Source: an uncultured Victivallales bacterium
Lineage (GTDB): Bacteria; Verrucomicrobiota; Kiritimatiellia; UBA8416; CAYOBW01
NCBI GenBank assembly: GCA_964555035.1
Contig: CAZKRK010000046.1
Coordinates: forward strand, 1 to 29,411
Length of the DNA: 29,411 nt
Direction of reading: 5' to 3'
Shown: one piece after another, positions 7,590 through 28,959 of the stretch
Numbering within the stretch: the first letter of the stretch is position 1
Layout of the letters: every line of letters begins with the position of its first letter
Made by a program: the position numbers and the translations under genes
Notes under the pieces: model-generated
Databases searched by the model: none
What the model was told of the DNA's origin: nothing
Seen by the model: the letters and a program-made list of their open reading frames with translations, nothing else

Positions 7590-7856
7590 TCCTTGTAGGT
7601 TACTGGGGTTCCTGGTCCCTCCCGGACAAGAAATCGGATACTAACGAAAAGGAGCCGAACAAATCAAGCACCGGTTCGCTGAGTCCGCGGCCGCGGGCGC
7701 ATCTCGATCTGCTGCACTTGCCGAGTGGCCCCCACCGGGATAAGCCCGGCGGGGGGGCCTCGGCAAATGCAACAAATCGGCGCCATTGTCAATCCGCCCC
7801 GTTTGTGCCATTTTTCGAGCATTGTGAAGACCTCCACCGAGAACATTGCGGCCGGG

Positions 7857-10800
7857 ATGAGGCAGAACCGGCTCTTTCTCGACCTCGAAACAACCCGGAG
7901 CGGACGCATTCGCAAAGTCGGCGCCGTATTCGGCGATCGTGTTGTGTCGTCGGCACACGACGGGGGCGTGCAACGGGCGCTGTCCATTCTGGACCGAATA
8001 GCCGGCCAGGCCGAGTGCCTCGCGGGACACAACATCGTCGATCACGACCTGCCTGCTCTTCGCCATTGCCGTGCGGACTTGAAACTCCTGCAGGTTCCCG
8101 TGATCGATACGCTCTACCTCTCGCCGATCTGCTTTCCCGAAAATCCCTATCATTGCCTGGTCAAGGACTACAAGTTGGTCTCGGAAACCGTCAGCGATCC
8201 TGTCGAAGACGCCCGCCTGGCCGCAACGCTGTTCGAGGACGAAATCGCGTCTCTGATCGGTATCCGAGAAAGCAGTCCCGAGCTTTTCAAAGCGTTGCAC
8301 CTGCTGACCACAAAGACATCGCCGTCGGATCCCGGATCTCATGCGACCGGAATGAGGCATCTGTTCCGGAGCCTCGGGGCCGACGCGGTCACCGATGACG
8401 CGCTCGAGTGTGTCCGCGGGATGGCGGCGCAGTACGGCTGTCGAACGGCAGCCGTACGCTTGGACCACACGAACCTCACGTCCGCGCAGAAGTGCTGGGC
8501 GCTGGCCTTCGTGCTGACCTGGTTGCGCGTGTCCGGCTCGGATTCCGTCATTCCGCCCTGGGTGCGGCACCGCCACCCGTCCGTCAGCGTATTCCTTCAT
8601 GCGCTCCGGGATGTTCCTTGTGACGACGCGGATTGCCGGTATTGTGCCGAAACCCACAGTCCCGAGAAGCAGCTCAAGCGGTTCTTCGGGTTCGACTGCT
8701 TCCGACCCACGCCGCATGATGGGAACGGCGGCAGCCTGCAACGCCGCATCGTGTTGGCGGGGATGCAGGGAGAATCGCTCCTGGCGATCCTGCCGACAGG
8801 CGGCGGCAAGTCACTCTGCTACCAACTGCCCGCACTTGTCCGCAGCGTCCGGCGAGGGCAGTTGACGGTCGTGATCTCCCCCCTGCAGGCGTTGATGAAA
8901 GACCAGGTGGACGGGCTGCAACGCCGCACCGGCCTTGAAAACGCCGCCGCGCTCTACGGCCTTCTGACGCCGCCCGAGCGTGGTGACGTACTCCGACGTC
9001 TCAGGACAGGTGACATAGCGGTTCTGTACGTATCTCCGGAGCAACTCCGCAACGCTTCCTTCACCAGGGCAATCTCGCAGCGGGAGGTCGGTTGCTGGGT
9101 CGTCGACGAGGCGCATTGCCTGTCGAAATGGGGACACGATTTCCGCCCCGACTACCTCTACATCGGCCGCTTCATGCGCGAGCTCGCCAAGCGTCAGGGA
9201 TGCCCCTTGCCTCCCGTTGCCTGTTTCACCGCCACGGCCAAGCGCGATGTCGCCGAAGAGATCATGGCCTACTTTCAACGTGAGACGGCCATGCCCGTTG
9301 CCCTCTACCAGGGCGGCGTCGAACGCGAGAACCTGTGTTTCGAAGTGCAGACAGTCAGCGCGCCGGCCAAGCTGGGGCGAATCGACGAGTTGCTGCACGA
9401 CCGATTGGATGCGAACGGGAACGAAGGAAGCGCGATCGTCTTTCGTACTACGCGCCGGCTCGCCGAAGAAACGGCCGAGTACTTGTGCAACCAGGGGTGG
9501 CAGGCGGCGTTCTTTCACGCCGGCATGACGCCGCCGGAAAAGAAGCGCACGCAGGACGCGTTTCTCGACGGCGAGCTGCGCGTGATCTGCGCGACGAACG
9601 CGTTCGGCATGGGGATCGACAAGGACGACGTCAGGCTTGTCGTGCACGGCGATTCGCCGGCTTCGATCGAAAACTACCTGCAGGAAGCCGGCCGGGCGGG
9701 CCGTGATCGCGGCCGTGCCGACTGCGTGTTGCTCTATGACGAGGAGGACTGCGAGCAGCAGTTCCGTCTCGGCGCCTTTTCAGAACTGAGCCGGCGCGAT
9801 ATCGCCCAGATTCTGCGCGGGCTCCGTAAAGCCACCCGCACGCACGGCTCGGACAGCGTCGTGATCACGACCGGCGAGCTCATGCGCGACGAGGATGTCG
9901 ACACCACATTCGGGCCCGAAGACCTGTCGGCCGACACCAAAGTACGCGCCGCGATGTCCTGGCTCGAACGTGCCGGCTTCGTCGAACGCAACCAGAATCG
10001 CACCAACGTCTTTCAGGCGCGCCTCCTGGTACGCTCCACCGGGGAGGCGGAGGAGAAGCTCGCGCAGCTCGGCCTGTCCGACGCGGAGTCCCGGCTCTGG
10101 CTCGCCATCGTGCGTGAAATGATCAATGCCGGGGAAACCGACAGCCTGACCGTAGACGGGTTGGCTCTGCTGCCTGAATTCCAAGGCTATCTGAAGACCG
10201 GGGCGGAGTTCATACCGCACCATGTCGTGCGCGAGGGACGCAGCCAGGAGTATCTGAGTTCAAAGGTCCTCAAGGTCCTTAACTCCATGACGAACGTCGG
10301 GATCATGAAGAAGGATACGCTGCTCACCGCGTTCATTGCCTACAAGGTGGCCAACCACTCGCGCGTGCGTTTCGATCGGGTCTGCGCGAGCGATCGCGAA
10401 ATGCTGAAGGTGTTGATGGAAGAAGAGCCCGATCCGGAAGGCTGGCTGCCGCTCAATCTCCGTCTGCTGAACCAGACATTGCTGGATCGCGATGTTTCCG
10501 CGTCACCCCCTTTCCTGCGCAGGTTGTTGCGCAGCTTGAGCGAGGACGGCAAAGGGTTCTCGGGACAAAGGGGCAGCATCGAGTTGCGCCACGTCGGCCG
10601 CGATGCCTATCGGGTTCGGCTGCGGCGCGAGTGGGCACAGATCGCGGAGCTTGCCGAACGCAGGCGTCGCGTGGCCGGTGTGCTGCTCGACGCGATTGTC
10701 TCCAAAGTGCCGTCCGCCACTCCGCCTCGAGCGGACCTCCTCGTGGAGTTCTCTTTCGAAGAACTGACCGCCGCGCTCAACCGGGATCTCGCTCTGCGCT

Positions 10801-13073
10801 CGGACGTCCGCGACATGCAGGCCGCCATCGAACGGGGACTCATGTTCCTGCACGAGCAGAATGTCATTGTCTTGCAGCAAGGACTGGCGGTGTTCCGCTC
10901 GGCCATGACCGTTCGTGTGCTGCCTGAATCGAAAGGGCTGCGCTACACGCAGGACCAGTACCAGGCGCTCGAGCACCACTACCGCGAACGTGTGTTCCAG
11001 GTGCACGTCATGAACGAATACGCCCGGTACGGGATCGAGAAGATCCAGGAGGCGTTGGCTCTGGTTGTGGCATACTTCACAATGGAGAGGGAAGCCTTCA
11101 TTGCCCGCTTCTTCGGATCACGCCGCGAGCTCTTGGAACGTGCAACGACGGCACGCTCATACCGTCGGATTGTCGATGCCCTGGGCAACCGCGAACAGAT
11201 CCGCATCGTGACGGCGCCGCTCAACAAGAACATGCTCATCCTGGCGGGACCCGGATCGGGAAAGACGCGCACCGTCGTCCACCGGTGCGCCTACCTGTTG
11301 CGCGTGAAACGCGTGCGCCCCTCTTCCGTTCTCGTCTGTTGCTTCAACCACAAGGCAGCGCTCGAATTGCGCAGACGCCTCGCGGAGCTTGTCGGCCGCG
11401 ACGCCTGCGGCGTCACGGTTCAGACATACCACGGATTGGCCCTGCGACTGCTGGGGTTCTCGTGCAGCGCGATGAAACCGGACGCTCGCGATTCGCTCGA
11501 CTTCGACAGGTTGATCGTGGACGCCGTGGACCTTCTTGAAGGCGGAAAGGCCGCGGCTGGCCTCGAATCCGACGAAACGCGTGACCGGCTCTTGGCGGGA
11601 TACGAACACATCCTCGTCGACGAGTATCAGGACATCGACGAGGCGCAGTACCATATGATCGGCGCAATCGCCGGGCGGACCCTTGAAGATGGCGATCGCA
11701 AGCTCACCATCCTTGCCGTCGGAGACGATGACCAGTCCATCTACGGTTTCCGCGGCGCGAACGTCACGTTCATTCGCCGTTTCTGCGAAGACTTCGAGGC
11801 CGCCACACACCACCTCGTCGAGAACTACCGGTCTACCCGCTACATCATCGAAGCGGCGAACAGCGTCATTGCCCGCAACCGTGATCGAATGAAGTGCGAC
11901 TTGCCTATTCGCGTTGACGAAGGCCGCCAGCTTTCCCACCCCGGGGGGGCGATTGCCTCACTGCATCCGGAGACAAACGGACGCGTTGCCGTCGTCTCCG
12001 TGCGGGATGACGCCGCACAGGCTGTCGCCGCCGGGACCGAGATTGAGCGGCTTCGGACCCTTGGCGCGAAAGACTGGTCTCGAACGGCAATCCTCTCGCG
12101 AACGCGCCGCGATTTGTCGCTCGTACGCGTCGCGTTGGAGGCGAAATCGATTCCGGTCCAATGGCCTCTGCAGCGCAACAAGCTGCCCTCGATCTACCGA
12201 ATGCGCGAGGTCCATCGTGCTCTCGGCACACTCCGCGAGATGCGAAGCAGCAACAGAACGGCATCGGAGCTCTTCGAGCGCGTCGTCATGCCACCCGGTT
12301 CTTGCGGCAACGCGTGGGCGGGCATGATCGAATCCCTCTTGAGCGCATGGCAGGACGAAACCGGCAACGCCAGCCTTCCCGTTGGTGCTTGCGTCGATTT
12401 CCTCTACGAGTCGCTCGCACAGCGCCGGAGAGACGAACAGTTTGGCGTCGGCGTCGTCCTGAACACGGTCCACGCGGCCAAGGGAACGGAGTACGACCAC
12501 GTTATTCTTTGCGGCGATTGGTCCAATGGGAGCAATGCCGCGGACATCGAAGAAGAACGCCGCGTCTTCTACGTCGGCATGACACGTGCGCGGCATTCGC
12601 TGTGCATTCTCGATCGCGCCGATACGCGCAACCCGTTCCGTGGAGAGCTGGTTGGCCCTTGTTTCGCCCCGCGACATGAGATGGGCCCCGCGAACGGCAA
12701 TCTCGCCTATCGCGACTACACGCTGCTTGGTCTCGATGACATGTTCCTGGACTTTGCGGGCCGGCAGCCGGCCCGCCACCGCGTTCACGAGGCTCTGTCC
12801 GAGCTGAAGCCCGGAGCATCTCTGCAGGCACAAGCGCAGGATGGCCGCGTCTGGCTGGTCCATGGGGCAGGGACAACGATCGGCGCTTTGTCCGCACAGG
12901 CGACAGAACTCTGGCGCGATCGCCTCGACGACATCGACTCGATCCGCGTGGTCGGAATGTACACGCGCCTGCGCGAGGACATCGGCGACAGGAACTTCCT
13001 TGCCCGCATCCGCTGCGACTCGTGGGAAGTCCCGGTCTGCGAGGTCCGCTCCATGCCGGCCGGGCAGGACTGA
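7857..13073 (+). CDS. Giant multidomain helicase-nuclease: DnaQ-like 3'-5' exonuclease + RecQ-family helicase core + unknown ~450-aa middle region + UvrD/PcrA-family helicase core + unknown ~170-aa C-terminal domain
   Basis: Exo I FLDLETT and Exo II [12 protein letters not shown] near the N-terminus. RecQ motifs: [102 protein letters not shown]. UvrD motifs: [98 protein letters not shown]. Single uninterrupted frame. The ORF-track start at 7725 probably over-extends; ATG at 7857 sits immediately before the exonuclease motif. Confidence 0.9.
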   Translation: [1738 protein letters not shown]

Positions 13074-13350: not shown

Positions 13351-16122
13351 CTACGGTCGCGCCAACTCCGCCTCGACGCGCGCGACGAGGTCCAGTCCCT
13401 CTTGGAGAGCACCATCGCCGTCGCTTCCGCCGCCGTCGAAGGCGGCCAGGGCAGAGACGAGGGCTGCGGGTTCTGTCGGGAGCTCGGAACCGTCGCCGTC
13501 GGGCTTTGTTCCGGGACCGTGGTGCAGGACGACGACCGCTTCGCGCCCCGCTCCCAGAACCGTCGCAAGGTGCGGGAGTGCCTGCTCCGCAAGACCCACA
13601 CCCGCCAACGCCTCGACGGCCTTGCGCTCGGCTGCGGTCGTTGCCCAGACCTTGCGTGCCGCGGCACGGTGGAGCTTCGGCTTGGGCCGTTCCCGCGGGG
13701 GCAATGGCGTGTAGCCGTCGGCGGCATGTACCGTATCGATGTCGGCGGACAGCGTGAGGATGCCCATTTCCTGAAGCCGCAGCAGCATCGCGTGCATCTC
13801 CGGCGTAATGACCTCGGCCGTGGCGCCTGCCGCCTCGGCCGTATCGCGAAGCGCATCGAGGTCCGTTCCGGGGCGCGACACGACTACCGTCCCGCCGGTT
13901 TTGGCGTTGCGTTCGATGCCGAGGATGATGTCCGCGTGGCGCGCCGTGAGTTCTTCCTTCAGTGTCCTGGGTTTCTCTTCGCGAGCCGGTGGGGCAGGCG
14001 CCACGGGCTCCCCGCCCAGCAATTCGCCGACGCGCGCCGCAAAGGCCTGGCGACCGGTTTTGCCGCTCGGCCGTTCCTCGAACGCGGCCCCGTCCAGCAC
14101 GGAGTCGGCCAGCGCGGTCTTGTACGCCAACTTGTCGAGCATGGCGCTTTCGATCGAGCGTTCCGCGACCAGGTTGACGACGCGCACGCTTCGCTTCTGG
14201 TGCTTGCGCCAGGCCCGCGCGATGCGCTGCTCCAGCTTCGCCGGATTCCAGGGCAGGTCGAGGTTGATCACGATGTTCGCGGCCTGCAGGTTCAGACCCG
14301 CGCCGCCTGACTCGGACGAGAGAAACACGCGGCAGTCGGCATTCTGCTTGAACATGCGGATCTGCTCGCGCCGTTTCTGCTGGGGGATTCTGCCGGTGTG
14401 TTCCGCGAACCCGATTCCTTTTGCGGTCAGCAGTTCCTTTACGAGGTCGAGCATGCGCACCCACTCCGAGAATATGATGACCTTCGCCTCCGGGTCGTCA
14501 CCCAGCAGGTCGTCGAGGATGTTCTCCAGCTCCTCCAGCTTCGGACAGTCACGGCACTCGGGGTCAAGGATGTAGGGCGTGTCGCAGATCATGCGCATGC
14601 AACCCAGCAAGAGCAGAAGGCGTTCCTGCTCCTTCTTCGTCAACGGGCGCCGTTTCATGATCGAAACGAGCATGGCCACGTCGTATTCGATCTCGGCATA
14701 GCGCGCCCGCTGCTCTTTTGTCATGGAAACGAAGAAGTTCTTGTCGGTACGTTCCGGCAAGGCGTCTTCGACGTCGCTCTTGCGGCGGCGCAACATCACC
14801 GACGAGACCGTGCGGTGCAGCTTGTCCAGGTTCCTGGGGCGGACCTCGTTGTCGGAAGTGAGTTCCATAAACGCGCGCTGAAAACGGAAGAGCGACCCGA
14901 ACACGTGTGGGTCGACGAACTCGACCAACGAGTACAACTCCTCGATGCGGTTTTCCAAGGGCGTTCCGGTCAGCACGAATGCGTATGGACTGCGCACCCG
15001 CTTGATCGTTTTGGCGGTCTTCGTGGGCCAGTTCTTGATGCGTTGCGCCTCATCGAGGATGACGAGGTCCGGAACGAGCAGGCGGTTGATATCGTCCACG
15101 TCATTGCGTACCTGCTCGTAGTTGCAGAGGCTGTACGGATGCTCCTCGGCATAGAGGCGCAGGCGGGCGGGCCGCGATCCGAAGACCGGCTTGGCCTGGC
15201 GGCCGGTGAACTGCATGATCTGGTCCTCCCACTCCGCCTTGAGCGAAGCGGGGCTGACCACCAGCACGCGGCGCACGCGGCCGGACTGGCGCAGCAGCTC
15301 GGCGGCGGCAATCGCCTGCACCGTCTTGCCGAGCCCCATCTCGTCGGCCAGCAGGGCGCGACCGGTGAAAGCCAGATGTGCCATGCCCGCTTTCTGATAG
15401 GGGTACAAGGGAAGGACAACGGGGTTGTCGGTGCGTTTGGCGGCTGCCACGTCGCGATCGAAATGCCGCCGCAGCTCGTCAAGGTCCGTCCTGAACCTCT
15501 CTCGCTCGAGCCAGTAGTCGACGTGTTCGGACAGACGCACGCCCTTCCGCGCCGATGCGGTGAGCATGGCCGTGGCGCGTTCCGCGGCCGTGCACGCGTC
15601 CGTATTGCCGGCCAGGGCGAAGCCTTCATCGCCGAACAGCGACCCCACGCGCCTCTCGACCGCGGCGATGCCCGCTGCCGGCCGCAACAGGCGCAACCGC
15701 GGATTGGGTCCGCGAACGTCCATGAAAATCTCGTAGGCAGGCGATCCCGCCTTTGCCGCGCGGGCAAAGGCGCGCTTCTTGCGGTGCTGGATGAACTGCC
15801 GCACACGCTCGATGTGCTTGCAGCACCCGAGGCGGTTCATGCGGTAGTCCTGACACGAACAACTGTTCAGGTTCTCCGACAGACTCCGAATCTCGACGCG
15901 GTAGGGTTGCTCCCACTGCGTGGACGAGACCTCGAAGAGACCGTGGAAATCGTCACGCATCGCCACGCGGGTGACCTGCGCCTTTTCCTTCTCGGCACTC
16001 TCGCGCCGCAGCACGATGCTCTGCTCATCCGTCGGAAAGCCAACCCGTTTCGGTGGCCGTTTCTGGACCTGTTTGGCCTTCTTGCTTCTGCGTTTCTTCC
16101 GCGTCTTCCGTTCCAAGCTCAT
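13351..16122 (-). CDS. SWIM-zinc-finger SNF2-family helicase/ATPase with ~280-aa C-terminal extension of unknown function
   Basis: Basic N-terminus, then SWIM CxC...CxH (CSCQDYRMNRLGCCKH). SNF2 motifs: LLADEMGLGKTVQ, DLVILDEAQRIKN, LTGTPLENRIEELYSLVEF, and helicase-C LSSESGGAGLNLQAANIVINLDLPWNPAKLEQRIARAWR. 923 aa. Confidence 0.9.
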   Translation of the reverse strand: MSLERKTRKKRRSKKAKQVQKRPPKRVGFPTDEQSIVLRRESAEKEKAQVTRVAMRDDFHGLFEVSSTQWEQPYRVEIRSLSENLNSCSCQDYRMNRLGCCKHIERVRQFIQHRKKRAFARAAKAGSPAYEIFMDVRGPNPRLRLLRPAAGIAAVERRVGSLFGDEGFALAGNTDACTAAERATAMLTASARKGVRLSEHVDYWLERERFRTDLDELRRHFDRDVAAAKRTDNPVVLPLYPYQKAGMAHLAFTGRALLADEMGLGKTVQAIAAAELLRQSGRVRRVLVVSPASLKAEWEDQIMQFTGRQAKPVFGSRPARLRLYAEEHPYSLCNYEQVRNDVDDINRLLVPDLVILDEAQRIKNWPTKTAKTIKRVRSPYAFVLTGTPLENRIEELYSLVEFVDPHVFGSLFRFQRAFMELTSDNEVRPRNLDKLHRTVSSVMLRRRKSDVEDALPERTDKNFFVSMTKEQRARYAEIEYDVAMLVSIMKRRPLTKKEQERLLLLLGCMRMICDTPYILDPECRDCPKLEELENILDDLLGDDPEAKVIIFSEWVRMLDLVKELLTAKGIGFAEHTGRIPQQKRREQIRMFKQNADCRVFLSSESGGAGLNLQAANIVINLDLPWNPAKLEQRIARAWRKHQKRSVRVVNLVAERSIESAMLDKLAYKTALADSVLDGAAFEERPSGKTGRQAFAARVGELLGGEPVAPAPPAREEKPRTLKEELTARHADIILGIERNAKTGGTVVVSRPGTDLDALRDTAEAAGATAEVITPEMHAMLLRLQEMGILTLSADIDTVHAADGYTPLPPRERPKPKLHRAAARKVWATTAAERKAVEALAGVGLAEQALPHLATVLGAGREAVVVLHHGPGTKPDGDGSELPTEPAALVSALAAFDGGGSDGDGALQEGLDLVARVEAELARP

Positions 16123-16269
16123 GTGCGCCTCAATACGTTGTCCGTGAATAAGCGATGTCCGGCAAGACTAGCCATGGAGAGGGGCGGGGTGCAAGAACTC
16201 TCGCAACCCTAACGACAGAAACGTGACCGATGACGTGGGGTAGCCATAGAAGCAAGCTCGCCGGCGCTC

Positions 16270-16297
16270 AGGCTCACACCTTGTAAAGTGTGAGCCT
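16270..16297. promoter_or_regulatory. Perfect palindrome AGGCTCACAC-cttgtaaa-GTGTGAGCCT between the regulator stop and the SNF2 promoter region; candidate operator (copy 1 of 2)
   Basis: 10-bp perfect stem with 8-nt A/T-rich loop. The same stem sequence recurs at 16898-16929. Confidence 0.55.
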
Positions 16298-16871
16298 ACC
16301 CCTCCATGCAAGCGATTCGTACCAACTCATGCGCAAGAGGCGATAACTTCCGCGCCAGGGCGTATGTCCCGCGTTGGTTCCGGACGACAATGTCACGGCG
16401 CACCAGTTTGCTCACATGACGCTTCATCGCCGGCAGAGAAATGCCGCATCGAACAACCAGTGCCACAATCGACAACCCCGGCGAGCGATTCAGTTCCCGC
16501 ACGATCCGGATGCGTCTAGGATGTGTGAAAGCTGTAAGGTTCCGAAACGCCCCCTCGATGGCGCCTAGGCGCCTGGAAAGCTGTCGTTTCATCGCGGTGA
16601 CAAGGGCCTCGGAAAACGAGATCGTGCTGTTTGGAGACACAGTGTACACGACCCAACGACTCGTCCGCCGCGCATCCAGGATGCCTCTGGCGTTGAGAGC
16701 CCGAAGACATTGGCTCGCACTGGATTCCGATATGCCTACCTGCGCGGCGACATCGGAGACGCACTGCCGTTGATGTCGAAGCAGAAACCGCAACACAGCG
16801 AGCCGTCTCCGGTTCGCCAATGCCCGGCATGTGCGCCAAAGCGTAGGACTGAGTGAACGCGCGTTCTCCAT
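16296..16871 (-). CDS. Tandem winged-helix (two ArsR/SmtB-like HTH domains) transcriptional regulator
   Basis: First wHTH: LANRRRLAVLRFLLRHQRQCVSDVAAQVGISESSASQCLRALNARGIL...WVVYTV. Second wHTH: HPRRIRIVRELNRSPGLSIVALVVRCGISLPAMKRHVSKLVRRDIVV. ATG at 16871 preferred; the ORF-track start 16907 is a GTG inside the upstream palindrome. Confidence 0.7.
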   Translation of the reverse strand: MENARSLSPTLWRTCRALANRRRLAVLRFLLRHQRQCVSDVAAQVGISESSASQCLRALNARGILDARRTSRWVVYTVSPNSTISFSEALVTAMKRQLSRRLGAIEGAFRNLTAFTHPRRIRIVRELNRSPGLSIVALVVRCGISLPAMKRHVSKLVRRDIVVRNQRGTYALARKLSPLAHELVRIACMEG

Positions 16872-16897
16872 ACCATCTCCAAGTAGACACCTCAACG

Positions 16898-16929
16898 CCA
16901 GGCTCACACGTTATAAGGTGTGAGCCTGG
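16898..16929. promoter_or_regulatory. Perfect palindrome CCAGGCTCACAC-gttataag-GTGTGAGCCTGG ~30 bp upstream of the regulator ATG; candidate autoregulatory operator (copy 2 of 2)
   Basis: 12-bp perfect stem, identical core to 16270-16297; the two loops differ but both are A/T-rich 8-mers. Confidence 0.55.
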
Positions 16930-17062
16930 CGTCAATCAGAAACTCGTGGCATCGGCATCCAAGCCAGGTTCCTTGACTGCGGCGACTACTACGACGTTGG
17001 TCTTGACAAGTACTGCCCACTGAGCGCTGGGATGGCAGAAGTCCTTACCTCGTGGAACTATC

Positions 17063-17170
17063 GGTGACACCATTGATTGATGATTCCCGATTGATGATTT
17101 GTGATTTTCGAAGTACTTCACAAATCATCAATCATAAATCGCTAGTCATCAATCAGACGAAGGTGTCACC
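17063..17170. promoter_or_regulatory. AT-rich extended palindrome built from GATT/GATGATT iteron-like units (TGATTGATGATT, CCGATTGATGATTT, GTGATTTT | AAATCATCAATCA ...), bounded by GGTGACACC / GGTGTCACC and centred on TTCGAA
   Basis: Low-GC island in a ~68% GC background. Outer 9-bp inverted repeat plus several internal inverted iterons, seen directly. Confidence 0.6.
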
Positions 17171-17361
17171 TTCATTTTCCGCGGTGCAGTCATCCCGGTC
17201 AGAGCGTAGATTCAACGTAGCCGCCCAGAGGACAAGTGTTTGCGACGAAGCCACGGTTCTGTGTGCGGCCGGGCGGGGTAAGGTTCTCTGGATGGAGTAG
17301 AAGGAAGTCCTCGTCTGTTTCCCAAAGTGCACTCACGTTTGCTCTCAACGCCGGTGTCGCC

Positions 17362-17462
17362 CACAACCCAAGTGTGGCATAGGTAGAAAAACGGGAAGGT
17401 AAGAAGATGGGAGAATTGACGGCATCATCTTTCTACCATCCCATCTTTCTGCCTATCATCTC
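17362..17462. repeat. ~100-bp dyad-symmetric element, copy A (CAACCCAAGTGTGGCATAGGTAGAAAAACGGG...CCCATCTTTCTGCC)
   Basis: ~75% identical over ~100 bp to 28362-28465; both copies have internal inverted repeats GGYAGAAAAAYGGG / CCCATYTTTCTGCC. Confidence 0.7.
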
Positions 17463-17575
17463 CTACACAGGGCTTGGCCAGATTTCTAGTTCTTCTTGCG
17501 CCCCTCGCCCGGCTAAGCCACTACGCCTCGGCCGGGACTTCTCCCGGCAGAGGGGGGCCGCATTCGTGGGCAGTC

Positions 17576-17625
17576 CATTGATGATTGTCGATCGCCGATT
17601 GCCGATTTCTGAAGTTCGAAAACCA
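17576..17625. repeat. Second GATT-iteron block (CCATTGATGATTGTCGATCGCCGATTGCCGATTTCTGAAGTTCGAA), related to the left half of 17063-17170
   Basis: Shares the word order CCATTGAT..GATT..CCGATTG..GATTT..TTCGAA with 17068-17112. Confidence 0.5.
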
Positions 17626-17704
17626 GCAATCAGACCGGACTGCGCGTCGTCGTCACTGCAGACTGAACAGTCTTTTGCCTATTCGCCCGCTGTAGGCGGC
17701 CTAG

Positions 17705-23008: not shown

Positions 23009-24448
23009 ATGGACACGATAATCGGGCGAGAAGCGGAAAAACGAGTGCTGAGGGCGGCACTCGAATCGGGTGAGGCCGAGTTCATCGCCGTATACGGACG
23101 CCGGCGAGTGGGCAAGACTTACCTTGTCAGTCGGTTCTTCGACCGGGCCGCTTTCTACTTCGAGTTAACCGGCACGCGTGACGGGCCGCTGCACGAGCAA
23201 CTGGCGAACTTTGCGGACGTTCTTGGACGCAAGGCCGGTCTGGATTTGGCTGTGCCGAAAAGCTGGGCCGAGGCGTTTCGGCAGCTCGTTCGCGTGTTGG
23301 AGGCCCGGCCGGCCGCGGGGAAACGCGACCGAACCGTTCTCTTTTTCGATGAAACTCCCTGGCTGGCCTCACGACGCTCGCGCTTCTTGTCGGCGCTGAG
23401 CTATTTCTGGAACTCCTGGGCCGGTCGGCGCCCCGACATCGTCTTGATCGTCTGCGGTTCGTCGGCGTCCTGGATGCTGGAAAAGGTAGTGGCCGACAGA
23501 GGAGGCCTGCACAACCGTCTTACGCGACGAATTCGTCTGATGCCTTTCACATTGCAAGAGACGGAGGCCTTCTTGCGATCGCGTGGCGTGCGGCTCGACC
23601 GACGACAGATTATCGACGTCTTCATGGTGGCCGGCGGCATTCCTCAATACCTGAAGCAAGTCGAGCCGGGACGGTCGTCGGCGCAGAGCATCGATGCGAT
23701 GTGCTTCCAGCCGGATGGCTTCCTGTACGACGAGTTCGATCGCCTGTACGCTTCCCTGTTCCATGATTCGGCCAAGCACATTGCCGTTGTCCGTGCGTTG
23801 GCGAAAACGCGTTCAGGGTTGTCGCGAACGGCACTGTTGAAACGGGCCGGTCTCGCATCGGGCGGAACGTCGACACGGGTTCTGACCGCGCTCGAAGAGT
23901 CGGGCTTCATTGCCCGGCACGTACCCTTCGGCCAGAGAGTCAACAACGCGCGATACCGGCTGATCGACGAGTACAGTCTCTTCTACCTTACCTGGATGGA
24001 GGGGAAGCGGCACGACTTGCTGAGCGAGTCGTGGTCGACGCAGTCGCAGTCCCGGCGGTGGTCAGCCTGGGCGGGGTTCAGTTTCGAGGGAGTGTGTTGG
24101 AAGCATGTCGACCGGATTACAGCCGAGTTGGGCATAGCCGGAGTACAGACCAGAGCGTCGACGTGGCAGCACAGAGGCGGTCCGGGAGAACAAGGTGCGC
24201 AGATCGATTTGCTCATAGACCGTGCGGACCGATGTATCTCGATCTGCGAAATCAAACACGGTGAAGGTGTTTTTGCCATTGACCGGAAGTACGCGGCCGA
24301 ACTGAGACGCAAGCTGGACGTGTTTCGCCTGCAATCGGGCACCCGCAAGACCCTGTTTCTGGTGATGGTCACGCCGAGCGGTTGCAAGCACAACGACTAT
24401 TTCACGCAGTTGGTGACTGACGAAGTGCGTCTGGAGTGCTTGTTCTGA
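23009..24448 (+). CDS. PF01637-type (archaeal/bacterial 'ATPase_2') P-loop ATPase with C-terminal DUF234 domain (PD-(D/E)xK nuclease-like)
   Basis: Walker A GRRRVGKTYL; Walker B VLFFDETPW. C-terminal IDLLIDRADRCISICEIKHGEG fits the D...E-x-K restriction-endonuclease-like motif typical of DUF234. 479 aa. Confidence 0.85.
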   Translation: MDTIIGREAEKRVLRAALESGEAEFIAVYGRRRVGKTYLVSRFFDRAAFYFELTGTRDGPLHEQLANFADVLGRKAGLDLAVPKSWAEAFRQLVRVLEARPAAGKRDRTVLFFDETPWLASRRSRFLSALSYFWNSWAGRRPDIVLIVCGSSASWMLEKVVADRGGLHNRLTRRIRLMPFTLQETEAFLRSRGVRLDRRQIIDVFMVAGGIPQYLKQVEPGRSSAQSIDAMCFQPDGFLYDEFDRLYASLFHDSAKHIAVVRALAKTRSGLSRTALLKRAGLASGGTSTRVLTALEESGFIARHVPFGQRVNNARYRLIDEYSLFYLTWMEGKRHDLLSESWSTQSQSRRWSAWAGFSFEGVCWKHVDRITAELGIAGVQTRASTWQHRGGPGEQGAQIDLLIDRADRCISICEIKHGEGVFAIDRKYAAELRRKLDVFRLQSGTRKTLFLVMVTPSGCKHNDYFTQLVTDEVRLECLF

Positions 24449-24477: not shown

Positions 24478-25860
24478 TCAATCCCCCCGCGACATCTTCA
24501 CCAGCTTCGGATCGAAACGGGCCAGGATTTCGACCAGATCCTTCTGGGCCGCCATTACTTTTTCGATATCCTTGTACCCCATCGGCACTTCGTCCAGGCC
24601 GGCGGAGATCAGAACCACATCGCGCTCCGCCAGGAACTTGCGGGCCTCGTTCCAGGTGAAGGATTTCTTCGTCATGGTGCGGCTCATGGCGCGGCCGGCG
24701 CCGTGCGAAGCGGAGTTGAGCGAATCGGGCTCGCCCCTGCCGCGCACAACGTACCCCGGCGTCGCCATCGATCCCGGAATAATGCCAATCGCGCCGGCGT
24801 CGGCCGGCGTCGCGCCCTTGCGGTGCACGATCACCTCCTCGCCGAAATGGGTCTCCTTCCACGCGAAGTTGTGGTGATTCTCGACGTCGAGCAACACCTT
24901 GGCCTTGAGAAAGCGCGCAATGCCGCGGTGGATCAACTCATGGTTGGCCGCCGCATAGCGCCCCATCAACTCCATCGCCGCCCAATACTCTCCGCCGGCT
25001 TCGCTCTCCAGATCAAACCACGCCAGGTGCTGCAGCTCCCGCGGCAGCTCGGGATGTTGCTTCATGGCCAGCTTGCTGTAGTGCTGCGCTACGCTGCCGC
25101 CCGTGCCGCGGCTGCCGCTGTGGCTCAACAGGGCAAAATAGACGCCCGGCTCAAGCCCCAGCTCGGCCCGTTCGAGCGTCAACGTCCCGAACTCCACAAA
25201 ATGGTTCCCGCTTCCACTTGAACCAAGCTGCTTCCACGCCTTGTCCCTGTTCCGCCCCGTCACCGGACTCACCGACCAATCCTCGTCCATCACCGCGTGC
25301 TCGCGACGATGCTCGAAACCGGAACCGACGCCGAAACGGGTTTCCGCGTCGATCGCCTTGCGCAACTGGCCTTCCGCGCCGCGGAGCATGGAAACGGGCA
25401 TGTCCAGCACCGTCATCTTCATGCGGCAGGCGATATCCATGCCGACCGCGTAGGGAATCACCGCGCCGCGCGTGGCCAGCACGCCGCCGATCGGCAGACC
25501 GTAGCCAGTGTGTGCGTCCGGCATCAGCGCCCCAACCGCCGAGACCGGCAAACGACACGCGTTCTCCATCTGCTGCACGGAAGTCCGGTCGAAGTCCGAT
25601 CCCCACGCCCGGTAGGACGCTGGTTTAGAGCGTGGCACGAAGCGTGCCCGCGCCGTGGAGGTCTTGATCATCGAGCGCGCCAACGCGCCGACCAGGTCGT
25701 GTTCCGCATGGTCTTTCGGCGCCTCGGCCACGGCCGCGATCAACGCCCGCACGTCGCGCTTCTTCATCCCGAGCCCCGCCGCCTTGCGCGCCGCTTCGAT
25801 CGCCAGATGAATGGGCTCCCCTCCCGGGATCCCCAGGTTGTACAGTTCACGCTTCTTCAT
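24478..25860 (-). CDS. rtcB: RtcB RNA 3'-phosphate ligase (long, archaeal/eukaryal-like N-terminus)
   Basis: Motifs MPDAHTGYGLPIGGVLA, NHEL, HNFAW, SASHGAGR. ATGA start/stop overlap with upstream rtcA at 25857-25860. The ORF-track start 25878 is an alternative in-frame ATG. Confidence 0.9.
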   Translation of the reverse strand: MKKRELYNLGIPGGEPIHLAIEAARKAAGLGMKKRDVRALIAAVAEAPKDHAEHDLVGALARSMIKTSTARARFVPRSKPASYRAWGSDFDRTSVQQMENACRLPVSAVGALMPDAHTGYGLPIGGVLATRGAVIPYAVGMDIACRMKMTVLDMPVSMLRGAEGQLRKAIDAETRFGVGSGFEHRREHAVMDEDWSVSPVTGRNRDKAWKQLGSSGSGNHFVEFGTLTLERAELGLEPGVYFALLSHSGSRGTGGSVAQHYSKLAMKQHPELPRELQHLAWFDLESEAGGEYWAAMELMGRYAAANHELIHRGIARFLKAKVLLDVENHHNFAWKETHFGEEVIVHRKGATPADAGAIGIIPGSMATPGYVVRGRGEPDSLNSASHGAGRAMSRTMTKKSFTWNEARKFLAERDVVLISAGLDEVPMGYKDIEKVMAAQKDLVEILARFDPKLVKMSRGD

Positions 25861-26897
25861 GATACCCTCACATGCCATTTGAGCCGGTCAGGCTTGGTGA
25901 CCGTCACACCTACATCCAGAAACTGCTTCAACACTTCGACATTCGTGGCCGAATGCCTCGTCAGGGGCAGCGTCGTGAACTCGCCCTCTCCGGCCACCGC
26001 CATGGGCACCAGGAGCTGGTCCGCAAGGTAACGCCCAACTGGTACGTCTGACGTCAGGTACTCGCGTACCGGCTTCACAACCGAACGCGCGACCCGCTCG
26101 GACGGGACTCCCCTTTCGCCAAAACCGGTGAAGACTCCGCTAACGTGTTCGCTTTCGAGGATGACCATGACGACGTTGCCCGGTCCGCGCGGCGCCGTGA
26201 CCTGCTCAATGCGCGTGGCACCGTCCACGATCGGCAGCAGCCTCCCCAGGGTCGCAAGCTCCTTCTCCGCGATAGACCGTGGGAGCTGCGAGACTATCGC
26301 CACGGCCTCGTGCCGTACAAGCTCGCCGCGTTCGAGAAGCTCGATGGGCGCAAGCCCGCCGGCCGGAGCAATATCCACCGTGAAACACCCGCCGCCCGCC
26401 GGGTAAAAGCCGGGACGGTCGAGAGTGGCTGTCACCGTCGGCCCCATCCGGTTGACGATGGGCAGAAACGAGCGCGTCAGGAAGTCAAAAGGCGGCGCGT
26501 ACGGATTGTGAGTGCCGCCCTCCAGCGTCAGGCGCGACGGGCCGTCGGCCAACAGCAATGCCGGCAGCACCGTCTGCAGAACCAGCGTGGCGCTGCCCGC
26601 CGTGCCGACGGCAAAACGGTATTCGCCTGCCTTCGCGCGCTTCGGCCTGAACGTCAGTCCGCGCGACTTCATCTCGTTGCCGTCTACGGACGCGGAACTC
26701 ACCGCGGCCGCGGCATTCACGGCCGTGAGATGCTGCCGCAGCAACCCCGGCTTGCGCCGTCCCGCACGGATATTCGTGATCCGAAACGGCTGCCCCGTAA
26801 CGAGGGAAAGTGCCAGGGAAGTCCGCAGCACCTGTCCTCCGCCCTCACCAAATGAACCATCAATCGTAATCATTGTGATTCTCTCTCCCATGCTCAT
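25857..26897 (-). CDS. rtcA: RtcA RNA 3'-terminal phosphate cyclase
   Basis: IDGSFGEGGGQVLRTSLALSLVTGQPFRITNIRAGRRKPGLLRQHLTAVNAAAAV matches the RtcA N-terminal signature. Expected ~340 aa when started at MSMGER (26897). The ORF-track extension to 27158 runs through a hairpin-rich non-coding leader and is probably not translated. Confidence 0.85.
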   Translation of the reverse strand: MSMGERITMITIDGSFGEGGGQVLRTSLALSLVTGQPFRITNIRAGRRKPGLLRQHLTAVNAAAAVSSASVDGNEMKSRGLTFRPKRAKAGEYRFAVGTAGSATLVLQTVLPALLLADGPSRLTLEGGTHNPYAPPFDFLTRSFLPIVNRMGPTVTATLDRPGFYPAGGGCFTVDIAPAGGLAPIELLERGELVRHEAVAIVSQLPRSIAEKELATLGRLLPIVDGATRIEQVTAPRGPGNVVMVILESEHVSGVFTGFGERGVPSERVARSVVKPVREYLTSDVPVGRYLADQLLVPMAVAGEGEFTTLPLTRHSATNVEVLKQFLDVGVTVTKPDRLKWHVRVS

Positions 26898-27043
26898 GCA
26901 CGGATCCGCCTTCGCCGAGCTACGGCGGGACACGACGGGTTTCCGCGCTACCGTCCGTCGCCCACGACCTCCCTCCCCCGTCGACAAGCCGAAACAGGTT
27001 CGGGACAAGACCCGCAAGCCCCGCGCTTCGTAGAGCGTCCGCA

Positions 27044-27125
27044 GGTGCGTCTTGGAAAGACGCACCGGAGGGCGCAGGCCGGGCAAACCCCACCTCTCGT
27101 CTCCGGCCCGCGCGACGCGCGGGCC
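27044..27125. promoter_or_regulatory. Structured leader between the SPFH gene and rtcA: perfect hairpins GGTGCGTCTT-gga-AAGACGCACC (27044-27066) and GGCCCGCGCG-a-CGCGCGGGCC (27105-27125), plus further GC stems
   Basis: 10-bp perfect stems seen directly; located in the ~300 bp between the SPFH stop (27205) and the rtcA start (26897). Confidence 0.5.
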
Positions 27126-27204
27126 TCCGGCGAGTCTACGAAGACACGCCCCCGCCACCGGGGGCCGGGGTACGCCCCTGCGTACCTCCGGCTCCCCGGG
27201 CCGA

Positions 27205-28885: not shown

Positions 28886-28959
28886 TGTTCGGTACGGGAA
28901 TCGAACCCGCAACACATGCATCCCAAGTGCATTGCTCTACCCAATTGAGCTAACCGATC
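28886..28959 (-). tRNA. tRNA-Pro (anticodon UGG), CCA not encoded
   Basis: Manual fold of the minus strand: acceptor GATCGGT/ACCGAAC (one A-A mismatch at 2:71), D-arm GCTC-AATTGGGTA-GAGC, anticodon stem ATGCA/TGCAT with loop CTTGGGA (U33, UGG, G37), variable loop GTGTT, T-arm GCGGG-TTCGATT-CCCGT, discriminator A. Confidence 0.8.

Follow-up and report, generated by a model that had tools for sequence, protein, structure and literature searches.

The contig CAZKRK010000046.1 of an uncultured Victivallales bacterium (assembly GCA_964555035.1), analyzed here over 29,411 nt (the window), carries a gene for a 191-aa regulator that is bracketed by two copies of one perfect palindrome. The encoded protein is predicted to be a repressor in which two ArsR/SmtB units are fused in a single chain, and it is quite probable that both palindromes are its own operators, the upstream one being autoregulatory and the downstream one auxiliary. 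This reading draws on the fold of the protein, the layout of related loci, the register of the upstream palindrome to a promoter and the covariation of protein residues with operator bases.

Palindromes at the regulator gene and in related loci

The pattern AGGCTCACAC-N8-GTGTGAGCCT has two matches in the 29.4-kb window (Table 1). No further copy was found in the window when up to three mismatches were permitted, and the number of matches expected from 100 shuffles of the sequence is 0. The regulator gene is encoded on the minus strand, with its ATG at 16871-16869 and its TAG at 16298-16296. The upstream copy ends 28 nt before this ATG and grows into a near-perfect palindrome of 38 bp (16895-16932), the 19-nt arms of which are 95% complementary. 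The downstream copy shares 2 nt with the stop codon and ends 148 nt before the ATG (16122) of a gene for an SNF2-family helicase. A preliminary description of this DNA had reported the palindrome near the start codon and over the stop codon, with the second copy about 150 bp before the SNF2 start, and the pattern search confirmed these positions and counts.

For the comparison of loci, 80 of 441 loci with relatives of the regulator, found in a metagenome scan, were fetched. Sites were called by a CACAC-N8-GTGTG core with at most one mismatch, and distinct intact loci with enough flank were counted. An upstream palindrome is present in 53 of 61 family loci (87%) and a downstream palindrome within about 160 nt of the stop codon in 38 of 64 (59%), while 31 of 56 loci (55%) are bracketed on both sides. 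The downstream core begins at a median of 17.5 nt past the stop codon.

Among 108 distinct sites, complementarity of the two halves amounts to 67-100% from the center (67% at pair 1) to position 13 and reaches background beyond position 15. Of the family sites, 77-96% have TT/AA at positions 2-3, counted from the dyad. The element is a 13-0-13 palindrome of 26-28 bp with the half-site n-T/G-C/A-T-CACAC-y-T-T-n. Since complementarity runs to the very center, the eight central nucleotides, which had been described as a loop, belong to the symmetric site and are not free sequence. The idea of selected stems and free loops therefore holds in so far as the central 8-mers of the two window copies do differ (CTTGTAAA and GTTATAAG on the plus strand), but the center is symmetric and partly conserved throughout the family.

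The outer and central positions of the site vary between loci and agree within a locus. Upstream and downstream copies of the same locus are 72% identical at 26 variable positions, compared with 46% between loci, and the triplet at positions 12-10 is the same in both copies in 26 of 27 bracketed loci.

A locus with two paralogous regulator genes was also encountered (L067; 2151-2723 and 4480-5091). The genes lie 1.7 kb apart with a DUF1848 gene between them, and the palindromes upstream of them are different variants, AGTCTCACACTTTGCAAAGTGTGAGACT and TTCTCACACATTATAATGTGTGAGAA.

The regulator and its family

Two ArsR-type winged helix-turn-helix (wHTH) domains had been proposed for the 191-aa chain, and this assignment is confirmed. 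Pfam wHTH families match the protein at residues ~14-80 and ~116-173, and the NCBIfam ArsR/SmtB model NF033788 matches two stretches with 85.4 bits (cutoff 55). When a profile of 37 homologues was used, either half matched the solved structures of SmtB, CzrA, CadC, NolR, HlyU, BigR and YgaV, the best PDB profile match to ArsR-family chains having an E-value of 5e-13. The AlphaFold2 model derived from the same 37-homologue alignment (predicted local distance difference test, pLDDT, 95.9; predicted template modeling score, pTM, 0.90) contains two complete a1-a2-a3-aR-b1-b2-a5 units, with helices at 11-98 and 104-189 and a linker of about 5 residues. The recognition helices comprise residues 49-61 and 146-158. 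A comparison of domain 1 with domain 2 by hhalign resulted in a probability of 97.5% (E = 5e-12, 20% identity, offset 97), and the top structural matches obtained with Foldseek were single chains of HlyU, SmtB, NolR and CadC, with a root-mean-square deviation (rmsd) of 2.8-4 Å over ~80 residues. On account of the two-domain profile matches, the modeled units and the homology of the halves, the regulator is predicted to be a covalent fusion of two ArsR units.

The winged helix-turn-helix fold and the family profile of ArsR/SmtB are thus present, whereas the homodimer of ~100-120-aa subunits joined via a1/a5 is replaced by a covalent fusion of diverged units. A recognizable metal motif of the a3N or a5 type, as known from ArsR sensing sites, was not found in the regulator; its invariant residues include C15, H117 and H152. 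Among PDB chains, none overlays both domains (template modeling score at most 0.40). The tandem winged-helix matches RPC62 and SelB were considered as single-chain analogues and were rejected (rmsd 14-16 Å).

By word search, 302 homologues were detected, all of ~185-200 aa. Those with a named source originate from metagenome-assembled genomes (MAGs) of Kiritimatiellae, Lentisphaeria, Verrucomicrobiota and Planctomycetes, and their public annotation is generic throughout ("ArsR family" or "winged helix"). At E <= 1e-30, the family comprises about 390 clusters at 50% identity, each with one full-length two-domain stretch, and members were found in bacteria of the Planctomycetes-Verrucomicrobia-Chlamydiae (PVC) type only. 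Neither relatives on viral contigs nor a dedicated Pfam or NCBIfam model for the family were found, and the literature search brought up no account of ArsR regulators with fused or tandem units or of the CACAC-N8-GTGTG motif.

Covariation of recognition helices and operator bases

Mutual information between operator positions and alignment columns was calculated for 57 non-redundant loci. The top pair combines residue 147, N-terminal in the second recognition helix, with base 10, which lies just outside CACAC (z = 8.7). Proline at 147 is accompanied by T10 in 38 of 42 cases, glutamine by C10, W, D, E or Y by G10 and arginine by A10. Further pairings link K or R at 154 to A11, Y or F at 150 to T12 and, in domain 1, L, V, I or M at 49 to T4. 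Residues 147, 150 and 154 share one helical face and are homologous to residues 50, 53 and 57 of helix 1.

In a tree that was built without helix 2, a state other than T arises at base 10 at least 13 times, and the R-A, Q-C and acidic/aromatic-G pairings each occur in separate clades. The downstream sites follow the same residue-147 code. Because the pairing of residue and base is repeatedly convergent, it is strong evidence that the family protein contacts the palindrome, and it would be hard to explain otherwise. The inner positions vary with domain 1 and the outer ones with domain 2, which together with the strict two-fold symmetry suggests one chain per half-site and two chains per palindrome.

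The two palindromes had been taken for the operators of the regulator, and this is upheld as a prediction by the conservation in the family, the shared variant within a locus and the covariation of helix and bases. The notion of a dimeric wHTH operator has to be modified, in that each half-site seems to be read by a whole two-domain chain.

The upstream copy and a predicted promoter

In 16 of 48 proximal upstream sites (33%), the start of a -35-like TTGAC (at least 5/6 positions of TTGACA) lies 22-23 nt away from the dyad on its 5′ side, whereas the same register is seen in 0-5% of antisense, distal upstream and downstream sites. A spacer of 16-17 nt puts a weak -10 box (nAAAGT) within the right operator half. 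At 22 of the 48 proximal sites, an ATG is located 11-12 nt past the dyad, the annotated start of protein P0101 being one example. Since this ATG falls where a transcript from the -10 box would begin, the layout of these 22 loci would be a leaderless one.

The fixed register behind the -35-like TTGAC places the upstream operator in the predicted core promoter, and this geometry fits autorepression. As in ArsR/SmtB systems, an inverted-repeat operator would thus lie over the regulator's own promoter, as judged by comparison of the loci. The autoregulation suggested in the preliminary description is in line with the -35/-10-like register over the upstream copy. The corresponding elements of the window are given in Table 1. 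Transcription is predicted to begin near 16903-16900 in the window, and transcripts of leaderless members of the family would begin with the A of their ATG.

Table 1. Regulator gene, predicted operators and associated features in the window.
Feature	Position	Strand	Remarks
Regulator gene	16296-16871 (incl. stop)	-	191 aa; two fused ArsR/SmtB units (~8-98, ~104-189), by profile and model
Upstream (promoter-proximal) operator, predicted	16900-16927	.	AGGCTCACAC-N8-GTGTGAGCCT; dyad 16913/16914
Downstream operator copy, predicted	16270-16297	.	Arms as in upstream copy; overlaps TAG; without promoter-like context
Putative -35-like hexamer TTGACG	16930-16935	-	Starts 22 nt 5′ of dyad; assigned by comparison of loci
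Putative -10-like hexamer TAACGT	16908-16913	-	Inside operator; 16 nt after -35-like hexamer; family consensus nAAAGT
Shine-Dalgarno-like GGAG	16877-16880	-	5 nt before ATG; leader ~30 nt
SNF2-family helicase gene	13351-16122	-	Neighbor in this window; outside the conserved module

Furthermore, the ATG lies at the outer edge of the operator in many family members (L112, 9980-10010; L114, 10019-10050; many of L028-L107). This position implies leaderless or near-leaderless mRNAs and indicates that some database starts, like that of P0026 (205 aa), are located too far upstream.

The downstream copy and the neighboring genes

Control of the SNF2 gene by the downstream copy had also been proposed. 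All-vs-all clustering of 481 flanking open reading frames (ORFs) from the 80 loci revealed no conserved neighbors; the only large extra ORF cluster in the flanks is an antisense ORF of the regulator. At the locus of a homologue with 81% identity, both palindromes are kept, and the genes that follow the regulator gene encode an extracytoplasmic function (ECF) sigma factor and an alpha-2-macroglobulin. The gene of a 60%-identical homologue has a PLD-like gene on one side and one for an M28 peptidase on the other, and other family members adjoin ilvD, LemA or peptidase genes. As the neighbors are unrelated even at 81% identity, SNF2 control is not a property of the family, and the link to SNF2 appears to be incidental.

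It is therefore distinctly unlikely that the downstream copy mainly controls SNF2 and that the regulator co-regulates itself and the helicase. The site does precede a co-directional SNF2 start by 148 nt, in the 81%-identical homologue, too, the gene behind the downstream copy is co-directional, and a bound protein could stop read-through. However, an ECF sigma factor gene takes this place at 81% identity and a peptidase gene at 60%, convergent genes come after about half of the downstream copies, the -35 register is absent there, and the sigma-70 scan gave no promoter-like site between 16270 and 16122. The proposal of SNF2 control is accordingly not retained. A local roadblock effect on read-through into SNF2 is possible as a side effect in this window. 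The idea of a roadblock as such is attractive because the downstream site is tightly placed after the stop codon.

A role of the regulator in anti-phage defense was considered as well, with reference to the SNF2 proteins of DISARM, Zorya and Dpd, and was rejected: no conserved linkage to defense genes was found, and the similarity of the SNF2 protein to ZorD, DpdE and DrmD is limited to the generic helicase core, with scores far below the equivalog cutoffs.

Hairpins, repeats and copies elsewhere

It is very improbable that the palindromes act as RNA or single-strand hairpins and not as binding sites of a protein, be it as factor-independent terminator, 3′-end stabilizer or hairpin of the 5′ untranslated region. 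Transcribed copies would be very stable (-34.1 and -37.5 kcal/mol; z = -4.4 and -7.1), the downstream copy follows right behind the stop codon (median 17.5 nt), and changes of the stem between loci are compensatory. For an intrinsic terminator, a GC-rich hairpin with a U-tract, the strong hairpin is thus possible, but the T-run is absent: no U-tract follows the stem, 0 terminator-like sites were predicted in 16000-17500, and the consensus of the downstream sites contains no T-run. Moreover, the symmetry reaches the central 2-4 nt, which would be unconstrained in a loop, mismatches in the stem are mostly non-wobble, and a clear G-U bias on the sense strand is not seen. The upstream copy overlaps the -35/-10 register and often the start codon and, being located for the most part 5′ of the predicted start, would not be fully transcribed, and a pure hairpin does not predict the covariation with the recognition helices.

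The exact palindrome was searched in 185,579 species genomes, which resulted in 23 matches, of which those in PVC MAGs are informative. In the MAG CALGXT01 (R1_Bin_METABAT__307_1), the identical 34-bp sequence CATAGGCTCACACTTTGCAAAGTGTGAGCCTATG occurs on L011, L012, L013, L014, L016 and L017. The copy on L013 abuts the start of a family regulator gene. The six copies may belong to a regulon or to a small dispersed element. No Rfam match was obtained at the palindromes or at the repeat of CALGXT01. Elsewhere on L014, a fluoride riboswitch was detected (1069-1137).

These copies are relevant to the view that the palindromes are a dispersed repeat, similar to repetitive extragenic palindromes (REP) or miniature inverted-repeat transposable elements (MITE), or the ends of a mobile cassette by which the regulator is merely carried. 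This view is extremely improbable. It would account for the unrelated genomic contexts of the module, the near-identity of the copies within a locus and the six 100%-identical copies in one MAG, three of which are located in a shared repeat of ~250 bp. On the other hand, no transposase gene, gene for a REP-associated tyrosine transposase (RAYT) or relative on a viral contig was found, orphan sites amount to only ~3 in 451 kb of family flanking DNA, and target-site duplications are not evident at the outer edges in the window. The position of the element is fixed relative to the -35 box and the start codon, and the residue-base code implies selection by the encoded protein. That the palindrome is the site of another conserved PVC factor and flanks the gene by chance is barely conceivable: orphan copies do exist, but the palindrome keeps closely and specifically to the two flanks of this family's genes, and helix 2 covaries with bases 10-12 repeatedly and independently, downstream sites included.

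Two of the orphan sites are in promoter-like places at genes that do not encode regulators and are possible members of a regulon. In a Victivallales MAG, an identical palindrome (L008, 354-381) follows TTGATA and is separated by 6 nt from the ATG of a gene for a secreted protein (253 aa) without a Pfam match, and on L048 (1934) the palindrome directly precedes a group-1 glycosyltransferase gene.

The matches in Rhodococcus, Bifidobacterium and Firmicutes differ in their loops or carry T-runs; they look unrelated or terminator-like and were set aside. In four genomes of Rhodococcus spp. (L009, L015, L019 and L024), the same 10-nt stems are part of the sequence gtcAGGCTCACACGCAATrGyGTGTGAGCCTgac, which lies within a conserved flank; this palindrome is conserved but unrelated to the one of the regulator family.

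Proposed mode of regulation

In the mechanism proposed here, the upstream operator would fill the spacer and the -10 region of the regulator promoter, so that bound protein would exclude RNA polymerase, which amounts to classical negative autoregulation. Each half-site of 13-14 bp would be read by one whole chain, and two chains would occupy the palindrome of 26-28 bp symmetrically. The first recognition helix is expected to read the inner positions and the second one the outer positions 10-12, with the invariant CACAC core lying between the subsites of the two helices. At the downstream operator, the same protein would be bound outside of a promoter, most likely at an auxiliary site. This site may cooperate with the upstream one by looping over ~630 bp, or the protein bound there, at the gene's 3′ end, may form a roadblock, which would here also limit read-through into SNF2.

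A more far-reaching version is rather unlikely. It would regard the family as a set of orthogonal single-chain repressors, in which the code of residues 147, 150 and 154 for bases 10-12 provides private sites. A roadblock after the stop codon would stall the polymerase at or before the stop codon of the regulator and add a second, post-initiation layer of autoregulation, as in lacI/O3 and possibly with non-stop transcripts, and it would insulate the cassette from its neighbors at whatever place the cassette has reached.

Several observations weigh against the predicted autoregulatory operators. A generic sigma-70 scan called no promoter in 16000-17500, and the promoter proposed for the window therefore rests on the comparison of loci. 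The -10-like TAACGT agrees with the consensus at 3/6 positions, a clear TTGAC is present in about one third of the proximal sites, and at other loci the site seems to follow a -10-like box. Among the residue-base pairs, only 147 with base 10 stands far above the noise of multiple testing, the other pairs being supportive; the stoichiometry and the assignment of domains to subsites depend on this covariation. The downstream copies, which lack the -35 register, are found about equally before co-directional and convergent genes, without an orientation preference of the gene that follows. The dyad-to-dyad spacing of the two copies ranges from 594 to 746 bp and revealed no helical phasing (Rayleigh p ~0.3), a test that is uninformative because the spacing is as large as ~600 bp. 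Finally, five of the six CALGXT01 copies are not located beside a regulator gene and those on L012, L014 and L016 lie inside the shared repeat, so that the set partly resembles a dispersed repeat.

Comparison with known systems

In the canonical ArsR homodimer, two wHTH motifs are inserted into successive major grooves (bioRxiv 10.64898/2026.05.15.721447). Each half of the regulator shares fold and sequence with the homodimeric ArsR/SmtB proteins SmtB, CzrA, CadC, NolR, HlyU, BigR and SqrR, which have operators of the 12-2-12 type, and an inverted repeat of ~26 bp likewise lies over the predicted own promoter, implying autorepression. In contrast to these proteins, two units with diverged recognition helices (20% identity) are joined in one 191-aa chain, the covariation suggests four wHTH motifs per palindrome, the known metal or thiol sensing sites were not identified in the regulator, and a second operator copy is systematically found behind the stop codon. 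The operator logic is that of ArsR/SmtB, and a fusion with two specialized helices takes the place of the homodimeric subunit architecture.

Two dimers on one inverted repeat have been reported for DtxR/IdeR and for SmtB, which gives four (w)HTH motifs per palindrome of ~19-27 bp. Those are non-covalent dimers of identical subunits, whereas a covalent fusion with two specialized helices is predicted here. Distant operators cooperate by looping in the case of lambda CI (OR and OL) and of LacI (O1 and O3), and LacI on O3, which lies at the 3′ end of its own gene, forms a roadblock that stalls the polymerase. As in these systems, the repressor gene lies between its own operators or ends at one of them. 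The protein families are unrelated, however, and the arrangement is operon-specific there, while it recurs here in more than half of the family and in unrelated contexts.

With REP/RAYT and IS200/IS605 elements, the module shares a gene flanked by the palindrome that its product is predicted to recognize, and the occurrence of several identical copies in some genomes. It differs in the absence of an HUH/Y1 transposase, in its low copy number (two in the window and at most six exact copies in one MAG), in the fixed position relative to promoter and start codon and in the symmetric duplex site, which is an imperfect hairpin in those elements. The protein consists of wHTH domains only, and the module was not assigned to these elements.

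Further features of the window

Between the regulator gene and a divergent gene for a 999-aa protein, an AT-rich inverted repeat of 108 bp was found at 17063-17170, with the ends GGTGACACC/GGTGTCACC and a weaker copy at 17575-17632. It holds six TGATTGATGATT-like 12-mers, three of them inverted; in the window, 9 matches at up to two mismatches compare with 0.95 expected. The repeat was seen in this locus only and may be a binding array of another factor.

The SNF2 gene is arranged tail-to-tail with a plus-strand gene (7725-13073) for a 1782-aa protein in which a RecQ-type helicase (~316-681) is fused to one of the UvrD/PcrA type (~1155-1630). A 479-aa ATPase encoded at 23009-24448 on the plus strand matches the PADLOC candidate defense protein PDC-S27 over its full length (E = 3.8e-181); its gene adjoins those for RtcB and the RNA 3′-phosphate cyclase RtcA on the minus strand (24478-25878 and 25857-27158). 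Near the end of the window, a tRNA gene is located at 28886-28959 on the minus strand.

Significance for PVC bacteria

For the window itself, the suggestion of a dedicated regulator for the SNF2 helicase is removed. For a sizeable unnamed regulator family of PVC bacteria, a predicted operator, a promoter layout and a residue-to-base code are obtained. Almost no regulators and promoters have been characterized in PVC bacteria, and TTGAC-N16/17-nAAAGT-N6-ATG provides a testable model with leaderless starts. The fused ArsR pseudo-dimer would represent a route by which a homodimeric repressor comes to read a longer site, and the family could supply orthogonal repressor/operator pairs for engineering. 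An operator that systematically follows the stop codon is unusual, and autoregulation by looping or by a roadblock becomes testable in this family.

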